From the NCBI GenBank assembly GCA_963769025.1, contig CAVYKI010000003.1:384001-448000 (forward strand): a stretch of DNA of 64,000 nucleotides, given 5' to 3'. The notes beneath the pieces were generated by a model that was not told where the DNA came from, did no database searches, and worked only from the letters and a program-made list of their open reading frames with translations. Source of the DNA: an uncultured Verrucomicrobiae bacterium (lineage in GTDB: Bacteria; Verrucomicrobiota; Verrucomicrobiia; Chthoniobacterales; Chthoniobacteraceae). Both the position numbers and the translations under genes were made by a program. The stretch's first letter is position 1. Each line of letters opens with the position of its first letter. Below are positions 3,656 to 51,255 of this stretch, one piece after another.

Positions 3656-4290
3656 ATGACCACCGCGAACAAGATCACCATCGGACGGATCCTGATGATC
3701 CCGCTCTTCGTGCTCATGGCGCTCTACTACGGCCGCAGCGTCGCACGCGGACATCCGCGAGGAATGGATGCGCCTCACCGCCATCGCCATTTTCGTCATC
3801 GCCGCGGCGAGCGACGGCATCGATGGCTACATCGCGCGCCGCTACAACCAGCGCAGCCGGCTCGGCACCATCCTCGATCCCATCGCCGACAAGGGCCTGC
3901 TCCTCGCAGGCATCATCACGCTCAGCTTCAGCAACTGGCAGTACGAATTCCCGCTCTGGTTCCCCGTGCTCGTCATCGCCCGCGACATCGCGATCGTCAC
4001 GGGCGTCCTCGCCGTCCATTTCATCAATGGCGACGCCCGCGTGCGGCCGAGCTGGATGGGAAAGACCGCCACCGTCACGCAGATGATCGCCATCGGCTGC
4101 GCGATGCTTTTTCCCGCCAGCGGATGGAAGGCCCCCATCGGCAGACCACGAAGTTGCCATCCTCGACATGCCCGTCTTCGTCGCCGGCTTCTTCACGCTC
4201 CTCTCCGGCCTCTTCTACCTGCGCGACGGCATCCGCCAGCTCCACGCCAAAGGCCACGGCGAACCGGAGCCGCCGGGAAAGGCCAGGTAG
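3656..4290 (+). CDS. pgsA: CDP-alcohol phosphatidyltransferase (PgsA-like), frameshifted in this sequence
   Basis: MTTANKITIGRI start; DGIDGYIARRYNQRSRLGTILDPIADK signature in a second frame; indels near 3760 and 4150. Confidence 0.8.
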
Positions 4291-4347
4291 GGACGGCTCG
4301 CCGAGCCGTCCCGCGCATCAGGGCGCGTTCGGCGAACACGCCCTGCC
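4286..4347. repeat. GTAG-type REP doublet (inverted pair)
   Basis: GGTAGGGACGGCTCGCCGAGCCGTCC (4286-4311); inverted copy at 4321-4347 whose reverse complement is GGCAGGGCGTGTTCGCCGAACGCGCCC; each unit is an internal palindrome around TCGCCGA. Confidence 0.7.
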
Positions 4348-4405
4348 AAAGTTTCCCCCGCCGCCGGAGTTGCCCGCCGCACACTTCACCGCTATCCCCG
4401 ACCCC

Positions 4406-7400
4406 ATGCGCACGTTCCTCCTCTCCCTCGCCCTCGCGCTCGCCGCGATTCTTTCCACGCACGCCGCCGAGCCCTTCGAGATCCGCGACGGCGACCGCGT
4501 CCTCTTCCTCGGCGACACGCTCCTCGAACGCGAGGGCACCTACGGCTACCTGGAGACGCGCATGGCCGAGCAGTTCCCCGACCGCAAGTTCACCGTGCGC
4601 AACCTCGCCTTCAGCGCCGACACGCCGCTCGGCTGGTCGCGCGCGTCGTTCGACCCGCCGGCGAAGGGCTTCGAGCGGCTGAAGGAACAGCTCGCGCTCG
4701 TGAAGCCCACGGTCGTCTTCCTCGGCTACGGCATGGCCGCGAGTTTGCAGGAAATGACGGACCGCTCGCAGGACTGGACGCTGAACCGCGACCCCGCCCG
4801 CTACGGCGCCGAGCCGATGAGCGCCGCGCGGTTCAAAAAGGAACTCGCGCAGTGCATGGATGCGATTGAGGAAGTCTCATCGGGCGCGCATCCGGATGGA
4901 ACCGTGGCGAACGCGGCGGACGCGGCGAAGGGAAAAGATGCCGCCAATCCTGCGTCTCCAAATTCTTCTTCCGCCGCGCCCGCCGCGTCCGCCGCGGTTA
5001 AAAAATCCCCCGTCCGCTTCGTCCTGCTCTCGCCGATCGACCATGATGATCTGCGCAAGACGCGTCCAGGAACACCGGACCCGACGGAGCACAACAAGCT
5101 GCTGGAGCAATACAGCAAGGCCATCGAGGAACTGGCGAAGGAACGCGGGGCGCGGTTCGTCTCCCTCGCTAACGACAACAAGGGAACGGGCATGGGATCG
5201 GGTAAGACTGTTTACCTGAATGGAAACCCGCGTCAGTTGCAGTTATTTGACGGACAACGGGATTCACTTGTCTCGCGCTGGCTACTCGCGATTCGGCATG
5301 GTGGTTGCATACCTACTTGGCTGGAACCTCGAAGAATCGCCAATCTCGCGAAGCCCTCCGCGCCGCCATCATCCGCAAGAACGCGCTCTTCTTCCACCGC
5401 TGGCGGCCGGCGAATGAGACCTACCTCTTCGGCTTCCGCAAACGCGAGCAGGGGCAGAACGCCGTCGAGATTCCGAAGTTCGACCCGCTCATCGAAGCCG
5501 CCGAGGCCGAGATCGAGCGGCTGAAGAAGGACCCGTCCGCAAAGCCCGCCGCGGTCGCCGCCGCACCGCAGCCTGCGCCTTTCGTCAGCCAGCCGCACCC
5601 GAGCTTCACCGCTCGCCGATGGACTCGAAATTTCCCTCTGGGCCGAGAACCCGCTCCTCGCGAAACCCACGCAGATGAACTGGGACGCGCAGGGCCGCCT
5701 GTGGGTCGCGAGCAGCGCGATGTATCCGCAGATCGCGCCCGGGCAGGACGCGTTCGACAAAATCCTCGTCCTCGAAGACACCGACCACGACGGCAAGGCC
5801 GAGAAGAGCACCGTCTTTGCCGACGGCCTGCTCATCCCCACCGGCGTCGCGCCCGTGCTCACGCCCGAGGGCCACTGGGCCTGCTACGTCGGCCAGTCCA
5901 CCGAGCTGCTCTACTTCGAGGACACCGATGGCGACGGCAAGGCCGACAAGAAGCGCATCGTCTTCAGCGGATTCGGCACCGAGGACACGCACCACATCGT
6001 CCACACCCTGCGCTGGGGGCCGGATGGACGGCTCTATTTTTCGCAGAGCGTGTACATCCACACGCACATGGAGACGCCGTGGGGCGTCGTGCGCGTGAAC
6101 AGCGGCGGCATCTTCGCCTACGACCCGCGCACCGAGCGGGTGGAGGTCGTTGCCGAAGGGCCTTTGGAACACCTGGGGCCACGCGTGGGACCAATGGGGC
6201 CAGAGCTTCCACACCGATGGCGCGGGCAGCAGCGGCATCTCGTGGGCGATTCCCCGGTGCGATGTTTGCGCCCAGCGAGGGCGCGCGCCGCACGATGCCG
6301 AGCATCAGCCCCGGCAGCTACCCGAAGTTCGCCGGCCTCGAGCTCATCTACAGCCCGCACTTCCCCGCCGACTGGCAGGGCAGCGCCGTCACCTGCGACT
6401 TCCGCGCGCACAAGATCGTGCATTTCAAAATCAACGATCTCGGCGGGGGCGGGCAGACTGGGAGACTGGGAGACAAGGAGACTGGGAGAAAGGCATCCGA
6501 CCCGACCGTCTCCTCTTCTCCCCCTCTCCAAGTCTCCCCGTCTTCCCCAAAGAGCGGCTACGTCACCGAGCAACTCCCCGTGCTCGTGCAGACCGCGACG
6601 CGACCTTCCGCCCCATCGACGTGAAGCTCGGCCCCGACGGCGCGCTCTACATCGCCGACTGGAGCAACCCGATCATCAACCACGGCGAAGTGGACTTCCG
6701 CGACCCGCGCCGCGACCACGAGCACGGCCGCATCTGGCGGCTGAGCAGGAAGGGCGGGGCGGCGGTGAAGTGGGAGCGATCTCAACAAGCTCAGTGGCAA
6801 GGAACTGATCGCAGCAGCTGGACAGCGGCAAAATCTTTGGGCAGAAGCGAAAGCGCGTCGGAAGCGTGTTGATTCAGAAGGCTAGGTGCCGAAGACCTGA
6901 GACGTTGGAGCGCCGTCGAGACTCGATCAGCAAAGGTCACGAGGCGCACGTGCCGCACTGATTTCGACATTGATGTCGAAGCATTTCTGTGATTAAACAT
7001 CGGCAGAGGCAGTCGCGCGCGATCGGTAAACTGCCGATGTCTTCGGTGCCAGTCCGCGCCGGGCGCGCTATTGCGGCACGCAACGTCGTCCAGACGCGCG
7101 GATTCGCGATGGCGAGATGCGCAACGTCGTGCCTCGACGAACTGGAGAACGGATCACCCGATCACGCGCAACAATTATGAAGCGACATGAGACAGTTGGC
7201 AGCATGCCGTCTTCCCGGACGATATCTCCATGAGCGGGTCATCGCCGACGCCACATCCGCGCGTTCGGGTCGAAGCAATGCGCGCGCTCGCCCGCATTCC
7301 CACTCTCGAAAGCGCCTCGCTCATCCTCGACGCCGCGATCAACGCGCCGAAGGACGATCCGCATTACGAGTTCGCCGCGTGGCTTTCCATCAATGACCTC

Positions 7401-9274
7401 GCGGAGGTCTGGACGAAGGCCGTGCTCGCGGGCGAATGCGAAGCCCGAGGGGCGCGAGAAGCAGTTCGAGTTTGCGCTGAATGCCATCGAGCCCGCGCTC
7501 GCCGGGCAGGTGCTCTCGCAGTTCGTGAGCACCGGCCGCGCGCCGCTCGACGGCTCCGGCCCGTGGATCGAACTCATCGGCAACACCGGCGGCCCCGGCG
7601 AACTCCGCCGCCTGCTCGACGGCCTGCTCGCCGCCACCACCCCCGACGGCGACAACATCGAAGCCGCTCGCCGACGCGAAGTACAAATTCAAGGTCGCCC
7701 GGCGCCAATCCCCGCGCCGCCGCCGCGCTCGTCGCCGCCGCCCGCCGCGGCGTAAAGCCCGCGGGCGAAATGCCGCCGGCGCAGCGTTTCTCACCGCACG
7801 CGCCGGACGACGCGCTCGCCCGACGTCGCTCCGCCTCGCCGGCCTGTGGAAGCAGAATGTCCCCGCCGCCATCATCGCCGACGCTCGACACCCGCGCCAG
7901 CGCGCCGGTGCTCGATGCCGCATTCGAGGCGCTGCGCACGCTCGCGCACCCCCGAGGCCGCGGAGCTCCTCGCCGCGTATTTCGACCGCGCACCTGCGGC
8001 GGAAAGCTCGACGACGGCGCTCGTCTGCGCACAGTGCTCCGCGACGCCGGACAACCACCATGCGCCGCCGCGCGCTCCTCGCCCTCGCGCCGCTGCGCCC
8101 CGCCGAGGCGGTGAAGCATCTCGCCCGCGTGCTCGCGCGAGACGCCCGAGCCGCGACCATCCGCAGCTCTGGCGCGACCTTTTCGCCAGCGCGCCATTCG
8201 TGCAGCAGCTTCACGCAGACGATCCCCGCGAACCTCCCGCCCGCATGCCTACGCCACCGCCCTCCGCGCCGCCCGCGAAATGGGCCGCAAGGCGCAGCCG
8301 CTCGCCACAAAGCTCGCGCCGCTCGCCGGCGAAAAGACCGCGCCGCGACCGCGCCCGCCGATTACGCCGACCTCGCCGCCCGCGCGAAAAAGGACGGCGA
8401 CCCCGTGGCCGGCGAAGCGCTCTACCGCCGCACGGCGAGCGCGTGCGTGGCCTGCCACGCCATCGGCGGAGCCGGCGGCAAGCTCGGCCCCGACATGACG
8501 AGCATCGGCGCGAGCGCGCCGGCGGACTACATCATCGAGAGCATCCTGAATCCCGCCGCGAAGGTGAAGGAAGGCTACCACGCGTTTTCCTTCACGATGA
8601 AGGACGGCAGCGAGGCCATCGGCATCCCGTCGCGCGAGACGCCGCAGGAGCAGTTCATCCGCACCCTCGCCGGCGAGCAGGGCCTGCCAAAGGCGAACAT
8701 CGTTTCCAAGAAAATCGCCGAGGGCGGCGCGAGCGGTAGTCTGATGCCCGCCGGCCTCACCGCCGCGTGGAGCGACCGCGAACGGCTGAACCTCTACGCC
8801 TTCCTGATGGAACTCGGCCGCCCCGGCCCCTTCGACGCGAGCAAGAACAACGTCGCCCGCGCATGGCAGCTCACCGACACCGCCCGCACACGCGACGGCG
8901 CATTGAAAGCCGAACGCCGCAGCGTCCATCCCATCCACGCGCGTCCACGCCCGTCCATCTACGCCCACACCCTCGTGGATGGCCGCCTCACGAAGGACCT
9001 CCTCGCCGAAAAACTCGCGATGCTCGCGCCCAAGAACGCCACCGTGCATCTCACCGCGCGCTTCCAAGCCGCATCCTCCGGCAAGGCGAAGCTGAACCTC
9101 ACCGGCATCCGCAAAGCCTGGCTCGACGGCCAGCCCCTCGCCATCGCCAGCGAGCCTTCGCCGACCGTGGACCTGACCGCAGGCGCGCACACCTTCACCG
9201 TGGAAGTGGACACCAAATCCCCGCCCGAAGTCCTGCGCCTCGAATCGCCCGCCGCGTCATTCCTCGGGGACTGA
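4406..9274 (+). CDS. Secreted SGNH/GDSL domain + PVC-type membrane-bound dehydrogenase (beta-propeller) + HEAT repeats + CxxCH cytochrome c; multiply frameshifted
   Basis: Signal peptide [24 protein letters not shown] and LTDNGIHL (SGNH); [53 protein letters not shown] and [11 protein letters not shown]; pieces lie in all three frames. Confidence 0.8.
4899..5005. repeat. Palindromic element (AACCGCGGCGGACGCGGCG family) inserted in frame in the CDS
   Basis: Arms AACCGTGGCGAACGCGGCGGACGCGGCGAAG and CTTCCGCCGCGCCCGCCGCGTCCGCCGCGGTT; related intergenic copy at 32871-32935. Confidence 0.75.
6451..6548. repeat. Palindromic element built of 8-bp GGGAGACT units, in frame in the CDS
   Basis: GGGCAGACTGGGAGACTGGGAGACAAGGAGACTGGGAGA … GTCTCCTCTTCTCCCCCTCTCCAAGTCTCCCCGTCTTCCCC. 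Confidence 0.7.
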
Positions 9275-9283
9275 CGAAACCAC

Positions 9284-9381
9284 TCCGTAGCCGCACGACG
9301 GCAGGAGGCGGGCTGAGATCTCGGTCCCACGTTCATCGTCGCCTATCCTCTTGCCCGCCTCCTGCCGTCGGCGGCCACGGA
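9284..9381. repeat. GTAG-type REP/REPIN inverted doublet
   Basis: TCCGTAGCCGCACGACGGCAGGAGGCGGGC … GCCCGCCTCCTGCCGTCGGCGGCCACGGA; same family at 48113-48197. Confidence 0.8.
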
Positions 9382-47443: not shown

Positions 47444-48050
47444 ATGTTCACCGGACTGGTCCTCGAAACCGGCGAGATTCTCTCGCTCGAGCGCACGGGA
47501 GAAAGTGCGCGCCTCACGCTGCGCGCACCCGTCGCCGGGCCTACCGCGCAAATCGGCGACAGCATCGCGGTGAATGGCTGCTGCCTCACTGTCACCGAAC
47601 GCGACGGCGAGCGGCTCACCTTTGATCTCCTCGCGGAAACACTGCGCCTCACGAATCTCGGCGAGCCTCGCGGACGGCGCGCGCGTGAACCTCGAACCCG
47701 CGCTCGGCGCTGGCGCGAAGCTCGGCGGGCATTTCGTGCAGGGCCATGTGGACACGACGGCGGAGGTGCTGGACTTCTCGCCGCACGCGCAGGACTTCCG
47801 GCTCGAGATCGCGCTGCCTTCGGACTTCGCGCAGTATGTCGCATTCAAGGGCAGCATCGCCGTGGACGGCATCAGCCTCACGGTCGCGGAAGTGCGCGAC
47901 GGAAATGCGGCGAGCTTCGTGTGCTGGATCATCCCGCACACGCGCGAAGTCACGAATCTCGCCGTGCGGCGCAAGGGCGGGCGCGTGAATCTCGAATTCG
48001 ACCTGCTCGCGAAATACGTCGAGCGCATCGTCGCGCGACAGCGGGAATGA
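47444..48050 (+). CDS. ribE: Riboflavin synthase (alpha), one frameshift near 47665
   Basis: MFTGLV, GDSIAVNGCCLTV, GGHFVQGHVD, KGSIAVDGISLT, VNLEFDLLAKY. Confidence 0.95.
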
Positions 48051-48112
48051 ACTGGATGGACCCGATGGACTCGCGCAAAGGCGCAAAGGCGCAAGGCAAA
48101 GGGGTGCCCGTC

Positions 48113-48197
48113 CCCGTAGCCGCCGAGGGAACGAGGCGGGCTGATTTTTCTTCCGCGTTGCAGAAAGTGCCCGCCTCCTTCCGTCGGCGGCTACGGG
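48113..48197. repeat. GTAG-type REP/REPIN inverted doublet
   Basis: CCCGTAGCCGCCGAGGGAACGAGGCGGGC … GCCCGCCTCCTTCCGTCGGCGGCTACGGG. Confidence 0.8.
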
Positions 48198-48198
48198 A

Positions 48199-48637
48199 AT
48201 GATCCGCCCCATCGCCGCCGCTGAGACAATCGCCGTGCGCTGGCCCGTGCTGCGTCCGGGCTTTCCGCGCGAGACGGCGATCTTCGATGGCGACGACGCG
48301 CCGGCCACGCTGCACTTCGGCGCGTTCGACGGCGAACGGCTCGTCGGCGTCGCATCCATCTACGCTCGCGCCCTGCCCGGAAATGCCGGACGTGTCGCCC
48401 GCATGGCAGCTCCGCGGAATGGCTACGCTGCCCGAAGTGCAAGGCGCCGGATTCGGCAAGGCGCTGCTCGATGCGTGCGTGACGGCGGCGCGGAAAAATG
48501 GCGCGGCGCTCCTCTGGTGCAACGCACGGACCTCCGCCGCCGCATTTTACTCAAAGAACGGCTGGGAAATCGTCGGCGGGGAATTCGACATCCCGACCGT
48601 CGGCCCGCACTTCCGGATGCTGCTCGCGCTGCGGTGA
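48199..48637 (+). CDS. GNAT N-acetyltransferase (frameshift near 48365)
   Basis: VRWPVLRPG; WQLRGMAT..QGAGFG; LWCNAR..A..FY. Confidence 0.8.
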
Positions 48638-48640
48638 GCG

Positions 48641-51130
48641 CTACTGCCGCTCGACCTCGTACCAGAGCGTCTTGAATCGCGGGCCGATTTCCAAGGTGGC
48701 GCCCGCGACAGGAATCTCCTCACGCCGCTGCCCGCATTCGTCGAGTGCCCACGCCTTGAATTTCCCGCCGCCGGGAAGCTCGATCTTCGCCGCCGGGCCT
48801 TCGACGAGGACGGGCGCCTTCCCCCAATCGCGCCCCACGCTCGTCTTCTCCGCATTCTTCCAGCCCATGCCGGTGTTCTCGATGTCGCCGGTGGCGGTGA
48901 TGAGAGCACGCTTCGCGTTGTCTGATTTAGTGCTCTCGATCACCGTCCATTGGATGCACATCCATTTTTGGCGTCTGCTCTTGGGCTCCACGAAAAGGGA
49001 TCCAATCTTTTGCTTTTCACCCGTCGTGCGCCCCACCCAGGACTTCGAGTAGATTCTATCCACACTGGCGAATCGCGATGCAGAATCCCAGCGCGCGCGG
49101 TGATCAGTCGCATTCTTCATCGTCCACGTCTCCTCTTCGCCTCCGGATCCGAGCTTGTGAGAAAGAAAATGCTTGAAAAGATCCCCCGGCGCTTCGATTC
49201 CGCCGCGCACAAGTGACGGCCCTCGTCTCAGAGCCAGCTCCACGATCTTGTCCTTTCCGATCACGGCAGTCTTGGGTGACGACGACGGCTCAATATCCCC
49301 CCGCCGAAAACTGATCACCGCCCCCGGCAGCGTCGCCATTTTCACGGTGTGGCGGTCGATGTCGAAGAAGTTGTTGAAGTAATCCTGCGCCCATTCGCCT
49401 GCGCCGCGGTGGCTGTAGCTGAAGGCGAAGACGCCGTCCCAATCCTGCAGCGCGGCGAAGGCGCACAGCAGCGGGAAGGTCTCGGCGGAATACGTGTTCG
49501 GCGCGGGGTGATTGTATTCGGTGCAGATGAAGGGCTTGCCCGCCACGCGCTGCGCGGCGAGGCCGGGGAGCGTGCCGCCGTCGGGCGCGCCGGCCATGGG
49601 CTCGTTCTTCACGTCCCACACGTCGGCGTTCCAGCCGCGGCCGTGGAAGTCGGGGTGATGCCAGTAGGCGTGCGAATCAATGACATCCATGCCCGCCTGC
49701 ACGTGGCCGGGGCTCCAGAATCCCTGCGTGCCGACGATGGGCGCCTTCACGCCGAGATCCTTTTTCAAAAAGTCGCGCATGCCGTTCCAGTAGGCGGTCT
49801 CGGTGTCCCAGATGAATTCCTGCCAGTCGCGCTGCTTGGCAAAGGTGGTGCGGGCGAGGTCGCGCTTGCGGAGCATCGGCACGCTGCCTTTCTCACCTCG
49901 CACAAACGAACCGTCCACCGCCGCGGTGCGCAGCGAGAAGCCGGTGAACTCGAACGCGCCGGCGGCCATGCCCATGCCGCCGATGGTGAGGCGGGCGTTG
50001 TCATCGGCGGCGGTGACTTTGATCGTCGCGGAGACTTCGCGAAAGTCGGCGCCGGCCTTCACGTTCGCGGAGCCGAGGACTTTCCACGGCTCGTGCGACT
50101 GCATGAGGGAGACGGAGAGGCTTGTGCCCTGCGCAGCTTTCACACGGAAGCGCACTTCGTAGCTCTCCGCCTTCACTGCGAGCGGGGCGGCGGAGAACTG
50201 GACGTGCCACGGCTCGGTGCCGGGCTTGGTGACGTGCACGGTGATGACGCCGTCCTTCTCCGAATGCGTCTGCTCCGCGCCGGCGTGCTGCTCGAAGTTC
50301 CACTTCGGCCCGGAAAGAATCTCCGGGCCGGCTTCGCGTGCGCCTTCGCGCCACACCTCGCGCTTGGCGTCCGCCCAGTATTTTTTCGTGATCCACGCGC
50401 CATACAGTGACTCCAGCTCCTCGCGATACGGCGCGGGGAGGTCGTCCATCTCCCCGGCCCACCACTGGAAGCCGAGGGCGTTCTCGTTGTTGATTTCCAC
50501 GAGCGCGACGGCGGGTTCGTCGGCGTAGCGGTTGCCGGTGTAGGCGTTCACGTGCGTGAGCAGGTCGCGCGCGTAGTCCTTCTGCAGCGCGATCATCGCG
50601 GCGCAGAAATTGTCCACGCCCTTGTCGAATTCGGGATTCCCCTTTTTCTCCTCGCGCGGGCGGTCGGGGTAGGTGCGCGAGACGTGCAGGTTCAGGTCGG
50701 CGTAGATGCCGTTCTTCTTCAGCTCGGCGATGAAGAAATCGAGCCGGTCGAGCTGGCCGGGGTCGAGCGTGCGTCCGTCCTTGGCGAAGATTCCGGCAGG
50801 CGCGCTGAACATGTCCATGTGGTGGAAGCGCACGCAATTGATGCCGAACTTCGCCATACGCGCGGCGACCTTCGGCGCCATGTCCTTGTCCGGGAAATTT
50901 GCGGCGAAGCACGTGTTCACGCCGAAGATGCGCAGGCGCTTTTCGCCGGCAAATAGATGGCCGTCCTTCACGTGGACGAAGCCGTCGCGGCCCGCAGGCT
51001 TGTCGTTGAGCCACGCGATGTTCGTGGCCGATTCGCTCGCGTCGTCCCACGGCAAGACGAACGGAAAAAGATCGGCCGCGTTGGCCGCGGCGGCGAGGGC
51101 GAGAACGGCGAGGAGGGGCGCGAGATGCAC
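48641..51130 (-). CDS. Secreted clan GH-A glycoside hydrolase (GH5-like) with inserted CBM4/9-like domain
   Basis: GINCVRFHHMD, EINNEN, DSHAYW, FICTEYNHP, AALQDWD; signal peptide. Confidence 0.8.
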   Translation of the reverse strand: MHLAPLLAVLALAAAANAADLFPFVLPWDDASESATNIAWLNDKPAGRDGFVHVKDGHLFAGEKRLRIFGVNTCFAANFPDKDMAPKVAARMAKFGINCVRFHHMDMFSAPAGIFAKDGRTLDPGQLDRLDFFIAELKKNGIYADLNLHVSRTYPDRPREEKKGNPEFDKGVDNFCAAMIALQKDYARDLLTHVNAYTGNRYADEPAVALVEINNENALGFQWWAGEMDDLPAPYREELESLYGAWITKKYWADAKREVWREGAREAGPEILSGPKWNFEQHAGAEQTHSEKDGVITVHVTKPGTEPWHVQFSAAPLAVKAESYEVRFRVKAAQGTSLSVSLMQSHEPWKVLGSANVKAGADFREVSATIKVTAADDNARLTIGGMGMAAGAFEFTGFSLRTAAVDGSFVRGEKGSVPMLRKRDLARTTFAKQRDWQEFIWDTETAYWNGMRDFLKKDLGVKAPIVGTQGFWSPGHVQAGMDVIDSHAYWHHPDFHGRGWNADVWDVKNEPMAGAPDGGTLPGLAAQRVAGKPFICTEYNHPAPNTYSAETFPLLCAFAALQDWDGVFAFSYSHRGAGEWAQDYFNNFFDIDRHTVKMATLPGAVISFRRGDIEPSSSPKTAVIGKDKIVELALRRGPSLVRGGIEAPGDLFKHFLSHKLGSGGEEETWTMKNATDHRARWDSASRFASVDRIYSKSWVGRTTGEKQKIGSLFVEPKSRRQKWMCIQWTVIESTKSDNAKRALITATGDIENTGMGWKNAEKTSVGRDWGKAPVLVEGPAAKIELPGGGKFKAWALDECGQRREEIPVAGATLEIGPRFKTLWYEVERQ

Positions 51131-51255
51131 GGGATGAGTCTGGGCAGAGGATCTCCGGGACACAAGCCGGGCCGCTCCCTTGCGCTGACGGCGCTTCGGG
51201 ATTAAAATAAACAAATATCCCGGTCAGTGACGCCTCTCTTTCACAACCTCTCTGC

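Follow-up and report, generated by a model that had tools for sequence, protein, structure and literature searches.

A discrete, AT-shifted and hypervariable segment in the C-terminal domain of a GH5-like enzyme from an uncultured Verrucomicrobiae bacterium

Why should an intact, GC-rich gene carry near its 3′ end a short in-frame stretch whose composition and sequence depart from those of everything around it? The question is raised by a gene on the minus strand at 48641–51214 of the 64,000-nucleotide stretch of DNA analysed here (the window; positions 384,001 to 448,000 of contig CAVYKI010000003.1, assembly GCA_963769025.1), which comes from an uncultured Verrucomicrobiae bacterium of the Chthoniobacteraceae. 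Read from its first TTG, the gene is an open reading frame (ORF) of 857 aa that appears to encode a GH5-like enzyme. A preliminary description, made from the sequence alone, had proposed a localized hypervariable region in this gene with a G-skewed entry flank, and had ascribed it to targeted mutagenesis or segment replacement acting on exported proteins. In the present analysis the unusual segment was placed at 48917–49294 (minus strand), or aa 641–766, which is the first half of a C-terminal β-sandwich domain, on the basis of a joint drop in GC content at third codon positions (GC3) and in identity to orthologues. The segment is a discrete cassette with sharp edges: its identity between near-identical genes is bimodal, it is stable at the strain level, and it occurs in mosaic combinations with the flanks and with a carbohydrate-binding module (CBM) of the same gene. 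It is favoured here, with moderate confidence, that the cassette is an allelic unit of about 375 bp (about 125 codons) with deeply diverged alleles, which homologous recombination in the conserved flanks brings into new combinations, probably under diversifying selection.

The compositional dip is real and statistically solid, and it is uncommon in the genome without being unique. GC3 is 83/126 across codons 641–766, compared with 601/686 across codons 46–640 and 767–857 taken together (Fisher p = 1.6e-8). Windows of 30 codons that start at codons 641–741 have GC3 values of 0.53–0.70, whereas nearly all others lie at 0.80–1.00. Total GC across 48921–49293 is 0.558, against 0.645 for the genome and 0.629 pooled over 636 intergenic-like gaps. 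When genes of at least 300 codons were ranked by their lowest 100-codon GC3 window, this gene (0.64, with 0.86 in the rest) came 263rd of 1865, by a measure that is crude and in which many higher-ranked cases resemble frame errors or over-extended ORFs. Of 1509 genes with 350 codons or more, 24, this gene included, passed a filter that selected dips of flattened profile lying in frame inside the gene. The hand counts on which the preliminary description had relied were all exact (41/60 GC at 49501–49560, 31/60 at 48901–48960 and 28/60 at 48961–49020, with 19 G and 7 C on the coding strand of 49291–49330), the codon strings that it quoted are present, and the frame is open across the AT-shifted segment as it had stated, with no internal stop in 857 aa. 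A compensated frameshift was considered and rejected: when a profile of the C-terminal domain from distant relatives was compared with the three forward frames of nine orthologues, only frame 0 matched, and the other frames scored below 0 bits.

Orthologues of the gene are present in 12 of 24 other sampled genomes of the genus. Over the nine that were aligned, mean pairwise identity is 0.22 across aa 641–766 compared with 0.80–0.82 in the flanks, and GC3 is lowered in the segment in every one of them (0.56–0.74 vs 0.75–0.96). Nucleotide comparison gave the same picture, with 48921–49293 of this gene failing to align by blastn in any of eight congeners whose neighbouring genes are 78–87% identical. 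The edges of the variable region fall at the same codons in all lineages compared. The localized hypervariable region that had been proposed is therefore borne out by the alignment of close orthologues suggested as a check on it, since the segment is far more variable than its flanks and has sharp edges.

To set these genes in a wider context, DNA sequences were gathered for 75 members of the family, of which seven were dropped as coming from the same genome via two collections, leaving 14 genes in a close clade and 54 in a distant clade (record titles name Chthoniobacter, Isosphaeraceae, Armatimonadota, Uliginosibacterium and others). The difference in GC3 between segment and core (segment minus core) is −0.07 to −0.36 in all 14 close-clade genes and −0.11 to +0.06 in the 54 distant-clade genes. 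At a core identity of 0.8–0.9, segment identity is 0.25 in the close clade vs 0.81 in the distant clade. Because the dip and the hypervariability both occur in the close clade and neither occurs in the distant clade, the AT shift and the hypervariability are linked and lineage-specific. The segment aligns collinearly to the distant-clade profile and has retained anchor residues here and there, and to judge from these alignments the cassette is the family's own domain, homologous and collinear.

Public sequencing runs were also searched, although the best of them held 0.16 of the words of this gene and none held half. Contigs of four runs (X1–X4) at 85% likeness covered the flanks and had zero depth in the bins at 48985–49242 in all four, an uncovered part that in itself proves nothing. 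Four X4 contigs have loose ends that start at 49295 (consensus agreement 0.62), and matching ends at 48904 in one X3 and two X4 contigs and at 48893 in a third X4 contig; these three positions coincide with the edges of the cassette.

The discrete nature of the cassette is seen in genes that are near-identical elsewhere. Among 44 close-clade database proteins, 30 segment types (delimited at 60% identity) and 14 CBM types were recognized. Seven of the segment types and two of the CBM types occur within a single group of 20 proteins with cores at least 96% identical. In 89 close-clade pairs core identity reaches 0.975 or more; of these, 47% fall below 0.4 in segment identity and 53% above 0.8, with none between, and values in the upper mode are at least 0.88. 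P0009 and P0015 match at 680/684 positions outside the segment (238/238, 162/163, 191/194 and 89/89 by part) vs 42/159 within it, a pattern that fits the segment replacement suggested previously, and P0039 and P0040 match at 693/704 positions outside vs 42/162 inside. The same allele was also found in different flank or CBM backgrounds, in a few cases only: P0008 and P0011 share the segment at 149/149 positions and the N-terminal core at 228/238, with the CBM at 56/183, and P0046 and P0049 share the segment at 137/142 positions, with flanks at 223/241 and 172/192 and the CBM at 72/242. In P0015 and P0032 the essential difference is an exchanged CBM, and genes with 96–98% identity elsewhere have CBMs of about 31% identity. 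By these comparisons the CBM4_9 module is a second swappable cassette, which varies independently of aa 641–766.

Two independent metagenome loci (L094 and L098) illustrate the edges at the DNA level. Over 4880 nt, of which 3 kb are upstream genes, they are 97.5% identical, and downstream the identity is 95.6%, whereas about 393–415 nt between the conserved parts fail to align. Identity per 60 nt passes from 0.98 to 0.25–0.48 and back to 0.93–1.00, so the edges are sharper than 60 nt. A third locus, L099, carries another cassette allele, and its downstream flank is 83% identical vs 97–99% for its upstream flank, which looks like a recombination tract. The copy of the gene on this metagenome contig (L099:3000-5490) is decayed: its CBM region is missing, and the cassette bears a 35-aa insertion with a stop codon.

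The age and stability of the alleles were examined by way of nonsynonymous (dN) and synonymous (dS) divergence. Between L003 and L010 the flanks have dS of 0.11–0.15 and dN of 0.02–0.05, whereas the segment has dS of 1.7 and dN of 0.51, with dN/dS at about 0.3 in both. Synonymous sites are saturated between alleles, and between-allele dN/dS is uninformative. Because dS is raised along with dN, relaxed or positive selection on the protein alone cannot explain the divergence of the segment; with segment dS far above flank dS, either the alleles are much older than the flanks or the cassette mutates much faster. Ten strain-level proteins (45 pairs) differ at 30/7155 site-pairs in the segment vs 229/10989 in the N-terminal core. 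This lack of a strain-level excess, together with two pairs in which the segment is better conserved than the flanks, favours stable recombined alleles over ongoing hypermutation, and the targeted mutagenesis of the preliminary description finds no support in it. Within one allele type the segment is somewhat faster than the flanks (119/136 vs 234/238 for P0006 and P0009).

These observations could be joined as follows. The clade has many deeply diverged alleles, at about 20–35% aa identity and all collinear with the ancestral domain, which are stable in the short term and occur in new combinations with the remainder of the gene and with the CBM. The route would be homologous recombination in the strongly conserved flanks, and the divergence of the alleles has probably been accelerated. 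Their diversity may be kept by diversifying (frequency-dependent) selection on an exposed surface, whether for recognition of phage or partner or for ligand specificity. Being non-alignable, the cassette would escape a GC-raising force that acts on the recombining flanks, and AT-biased mutation would then prevail in it.

A number of points weigh against this account of reassorted alleles. Finding 30 types in 44 proteins does not establish that the pool of alleles is finite; no segment type is shared between any two of the 14 close-clade genomes, and sharing of an allele between clearly different species was not seen. The relatives of the allele in the window are distant, namely P0002 at 35% identity and matches at 34% and 31% in 2 of 29 other genus genomes. 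Close-clade alleles are mutually 0.22–0.25 identical and thus as divergent as distant-clade segments are between phyla (0.29), or more so, and an explanation by old alleles alone consequently needs extra acceleration. In L094 and L098 the breakpoints are no more than tens of bases from the cassette edges and flank divergence shows no clear peak; a process targeted to the cassette would look the same. If high GC3 reflected codon selection, old resident alleles should have regained it, and they have not. Many of the proteins derive from metagenome assemblies, in which strain mixing could blur the flanks, and surface exposure, selection and gene conversion are steps that we infer.

The entry flank (aa 621–640; 49295–49354, minus strand) is conserved as protein but is written with AAA, AGT, TTT, CGG and GGG codons instead of the usual C-ending ones. 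It has 12 G-ending vs 4 C-ending codons, compared with 244 vs 357 in the rest of the gene (p = 0.008). The proportion of G among third-position G and C in this flank is 0.75 in the close clade and 0.47 in the distant clade, the core being at 0.41 in both. Most close-clade sequences use the same entry-flank codons, and the run ATC CTC ATC ACC GCC ACC GGC at the exit flank is common across the close clade. The G-skewed entry flank noted previously is thus a real feature, common to the close clade. In synonymous conservation the flanks are no outlier, with codon identities of 0.63–0.82 at the upper end of the range of the gene (0.45–0.82).

Two 25-nt arms, at 48880–48904 and 49311–49335, form an imperfect inverted repeat that brackets the cassette, the second arm lying inside the G-rich entry flank. 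They are complementary at 20/25 bases (80%) and stand 406 nt apart, and the G skew of the entry flank arises because it is an inverted repeat of the C-rich exit flank. The score of the repeat exceeds those of all 1051 control windows in L001 and L007 and ranks among the highest 3% of controls for 7 of the 14 close-clade sequences; the other seven, equally hypervariable, are at control level. No long-range RNA stem was predicted between the flanks: folding of the 476 nt gave z = −1.30, with no pairing of one arm to the other. The repeat is best treated as a lead with a candidate function, and not as an established part of a mechanism.

Searches for diversifying machinery covered the bacterium's own genome, which is 83% complete. 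A search with PF00078 (RVT_1) gave no match in it, the control search being positive in 3 of 14 named genomes. The DNA at 48880–49360 matches only itself there, with no template or silent copy, and the gene is single copy. The checks for a reverse transcriptase and a second copy called for previously thus detected neither in this genome, and no candidate mutator gene was identified. Alleles are 25–48% identical per 60 nt and have indels, so that they do not differ at adenine sites only. The opposite strand has two to three stops in every frame and would be unreadable if the cassette were inverted.

The AT shift follows the region and not the individual site. GC3 inside the segment is 0.61–0.71 regardless of the conservation of the alignment column, whereas outside it GC3 drops only from 0.85 to 0.76 as conservation decreases. 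GC at first codon positions (GC1) is also lower in the segment, and the codon-position profile is flattened. Lineage-specific insertions elsewhere in the gene have, when pooled, GC values of 0.56, 0.55 and 0.58 at the three codon positions. Long insertions of this kind were observed after aa 300 in L008, L009 and L010, between barrel and CBM, one of them about 80 aa long and rich in N, T, S, A and E.

Comparable dips were found in other genes of the genome. A 512-aa ORF (L174; G000:C3:615097-616635) has a low-GC3 middle at about aa 280–453, and a 175-aa stretch of it is absent from the orthologue in eight congeners; this middle part was also seen to be 25–39% identical to many dispersed loci, several of the matches having stop codons, and belongs to no Pfam family. 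Methionyl-tRNA synthetase (L175; G000:C3:992391-994388), a cytoplasmic enzyme, has a GC3 dip at codons 502–582 that overlaps a stretch (about aa 493–537) failing to align in more distant congeners. The suggested link to exported proteins is not supported, given such a dip over a poorly conserved stretch of a cytoplasmic enzyme. In the window itself, the same architecture had been reported at 5.2 and 6.8 kb. The stretches concerned (5166–5350 and 6776–7257) are indeed AT-shifted and unalignable in five congeners, with lengths that differ there, but along the apparent single long gene at 3700–9300 (plus strand) the high-GC codon position jumps frame at least five times in this assembly, and this is therefore not the same in-frame architecture. 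Parts of that gene resemble an SGNH hydrolase, a dehydrogenase-like β-propeller and a haem-binding domain.

Taken over these loci, sequence of this genus that has no alignable partner in relatives appears to be AT-shifted whether or not the protein is exported, which would fit exclusion from a GC-raising force linked to recombination (PMC4450053). The low, flattened GC of the cassette would then be a regional by-product, with GC-biased gene conversion in the flanks as the candidate cause. A rare-codon pause or an AT-biased mutator may be the cause of the AT shift instead.

Several of these results bear on explanations other than reassorted alleles. Localized hypermutation independent of reverse transcriptase, by episodic AT-biased mutagenesis of the 375-bp cassette and perhaps guided by the flanks or the inverted repeat, would agree with a segment dS raised more than 10-fold along with dN, with sharp edges at the same codons in all lineages, with a segment GC below even that of intergenic DNA and with an own allele in nearly every lineage, as well as with the near-clade-specific G-rich flank that forms an inverted repeat with the exit flank. 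It is nevertheless considered doubtful, given the ten strain-level proteins without any excess, the two pairs with better conserved segments, a bimodal identity that leaves no graded intermediates among near-identical genes, an inverted repeat at control level in half of the equally hypervariable genes, and the lack of an RVT_1 gene or mutator candidate in the searches above. An undescribed mechanism that would episodically rewrite the 375-bp segment without reverse transcriptase, delimited by the conserved flanks with their G-rich inverted repeat and yielding AT-shifted, saturated and in-frame output, is judged unlikely; almost every lineage having its own allele and edges fixed within tens of bases are compatible with it. 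Under gradual divergence in place, constraint on the half-domain would have been lost, or positive selection would have begun, in the close-clade ancestor, and later change would have come from point mutation and indels without exchange. The acceleration is indeed clade-specific, the segment is collinear with the distant profile and retains its anchor residues, and it is faster within one allele type. Such divergence cannot yield 26% identity beside 680/684, nor 400 unalignable nucleotides inside 97.5%-identical DNA, and it leaves unexplained both the 10-fold higher dS and the segments that are better conserved than their flanks. As the sole process it is contradicted by these data and quite improbable, although it may add to the divergence between allele lineages.

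The remaining explanations address composition or origin. That rare AT-ending codons were selected as a cluster to slow translation at the last domain, for folding or export, is very unlikely: the dip does have one fixed position throughout the 14 close-clade genes despite differing amino acids, but it is absent from the 54 distant-clade genes with the same domain, extends over about 125 codons, and is accompanied by a fall in GC1, a flat codon-position profile and the same composition in lineage-specific insertions elsewhere in the gene. A single foreign patch, acquired horizontally or by recombination in this genome only, could account for atypical composition and abrupt edges in one sequence, and is scarcely credible when all 14 close-clade genes have the same dip and edges and the segment is homologous and collinear with the family's own domain. 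The preliminary description had named a matching foreign donor as what would overturn its reading, and none was found: a search with the segment alone of a 5.8-billion-protein set (E ≤ 0.01) matched only itself, a uniqueness that is loose in that the search uses a word prefilter and missed the 35% identical relative P0002, and 29 genus genomes gave two remote matches. A classical diversity-generating retroelement (DGR), or silent cassettes with site-specific inversion, is extremely improbable as well. The variable stretch does recall such systems in its length of a few hundred bases, its position close to the 3′ end of an exported-protein gene and its bracketing by an inverted repeat, and yet the genome (83% complete) gave no RVT_1 match, second segment copy or second gene copy, the alleles are unalignable and have indels instead of differing at adenine sites only, and the opposite strand is interrupted by stops in each frame. 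The reassortment of diverged alleles by recombination in the flanks is accordingly the explanation retained in what follows.

The protein that carries the cassette is predicted to be a GH5-like barrel with an inserted CBM4_9 module, followed by the C-terminal β-sandwich. The stop codon of its gene is at 48641–48643. Its probable true start is a GTG at codon 29, where the database copy P0001 (829 aa) also begins, and aa 29–46 (51077–51130, minus strand, as for all features below) are probably a Sec-type signal peptide that ends in A-N-A before A47-D48, as judged by eye in the translation from a hydrophobic stretch and an AXA site; the enzyme is probably secreted. The first part of the (β/α)8 barrel spans aa 50–290 (50345–51067) and contains the N243-E244 motif, with E244 encoded at 50483–50485. 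Pfam Cellulase/GH5 matches aa 92–247 with 27.2 bits (cut-off 23.5), and E240, N242, N243, E244 and N245 are invariant in an alignment of 74 sequences. The inserted CBM4_9 module, aa 305–430 (49925–50302), which is the second swappable module in relatives, was recognized by Pfam (CBM_4_9, aa 305–411, 27.8 bits, cut-off 25.9) and by a PDB profile match to the CBM4 structure 1gui (E = 6.7e-19). The second part of the barrel, aa 443–640 (49295–49888), has a mean pairwise identity of 0.81 over nine orthologues and includes E566 (49517–49519), the putative nucleophile, which together with Y567 is invariant in the 74 sequences. As in GH5 enzymes generally, E244 would be the acid/base and E566 the nucleophile. 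Membership of GH5 (clan GH-A) is indicated by the profile match, the modelled (β/α)8 fold and the conserved NE/E pair. Downstream of the cassette, the second half of the C-terminal domain, aa 767–857 (48644–48916), is conserved (identity 0.80, GC3 0.85), and C-ending codons return in it.

An AlphaFold2 (AF2) model of the full protein has a mean predicted local distance difference test (pLDDT) value of 88.7 and consists of a barrel broken by the CBM, the remaining barrel and a β-rich C-terminal domain at aa 641–857. In it the cassette is predicted to be folded, with pLDDT mostly 66–95. Foldseek matched the model to GH5 mannanases and CBM4 modules. When modelled alone the C-terminal domain has a pLDDT of 80.3, and its best structural likeness is to accessory β-sandwiches of a GH35 galactosidase and of PL8 lyases (Z 8.0, root mean square deviation 3.0, 118 residues aligned), a Z score in the range that the tool rates as possibly a mere common arrangement. 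None of the NCBIfam models names the 857-aa protein, and no solved close relative was found in the PDB profile search, in which the best barrel matches had E of about 1e-4. The cassette alone has no Pfam match at E up to 1. No intein-like insert was found either, as no Pfam domain lies in the cassette and every member of the family has the segment in collinear position.

The arrangement can be compared with several known systems. The flagellin gene fliC has conserved ends and a hypervariable central domain, and Wolbachia wsp has hypervariable regions. The likeness lies in conserved flanks, a centre that cannot be aligned even for close strains, many discrete alleles that recombination shuffles and an atypical composition of the variable part. 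Those genes encode structural surface antigens of host-associated bacteria, whereas the present one encodes an enzyme of free-living Verrucomicrobiota, in which half of an accessory β-sandwich domain varies and an independently swappable CBM lies in the same gene. Like the variable regions of DGRs, the cassette is short, sits close to the 3′ end of an exported-protein gene and has a constant scaffold on both sides; it differs in that no reverse transcriptase or template repeat was found, in its indels and in the absence of hypervariation in one strain-level group. Unlike in GH5 enzymes with CBM4/9 and C-terminal β-sandwich modules, the CBM is here inserted within the barrel sequence and not appended to it. 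In the open-access literature searched, no paper was found on this protein family or on such cassettes in glycosidases.

The closest parallel in process may be the replacement flexible genomic islands of aquatic prokaryotes, which are described in PMC4033161 as exchanged by homologous recombination. In both cases very similar genomes have at the same locus unrelated sequence of equivalent role, the boundaries are sharp, and exchange has been proposed to take place in conserved flanks (PMC4033161). The more divergent flank tract of L099 is also as described there, whereas L094 and L098 lack a clear boundary peak of synonymous changes. The islands are multi-gene clusters and, in the same account, mostly concern exposed structures (PMC4033161). 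The present unit, of 375 bp, lies within a single reading frame, which limits it to sequences that preserve the frame and can fold, and for this enzyme exposure and phage recognition are putative.

A compositional dip in an intact gene of a GC-rich environmental bacterium can thus flag a unit smaller than a gene with an exchange or diversification of its own, which in this case is half a domain of a carbohydrate-active enzyme in free-living Verrucomicrobiota and not a pathogen antigen. Its variable face could recognize phage, a partner protein or a glycan, and natural chimeras that differ only in the cassette exist. The locus also offers a natural experiment in base composition, in which recombining flanks at a GC3 of about 0.88 stand against cassette and insertions at about 0.6, the contrast predicted if GC-biased gene conversion and not codon selection sustains GC3 (PMC4450053). 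In practical terms, such cassettes break read mapping and the calling of single-nucleotide variants, and they can be mistaken for assembly errors.

Two minor observations concern the DNA beside the gene. A frameshift apparently divides a riboflavin synthase gene at 47444–48050 (plus strand): residues 1–74 of the ORF at 47444–48202 match ribE models, and the remainder continues in another frame, in the ORF at 47574–48050. This split and the frame jumps at 3.7–8 kb suggest assembly indel errors or real pseudogenes. Between the convergent genes, and outside the gene of interest, a strong hairpin lies at 48113–48197; two Rfam miRNA models, one per strand, match it well below their gathering scores, and it is probably a palindromic terminator or repeat element.

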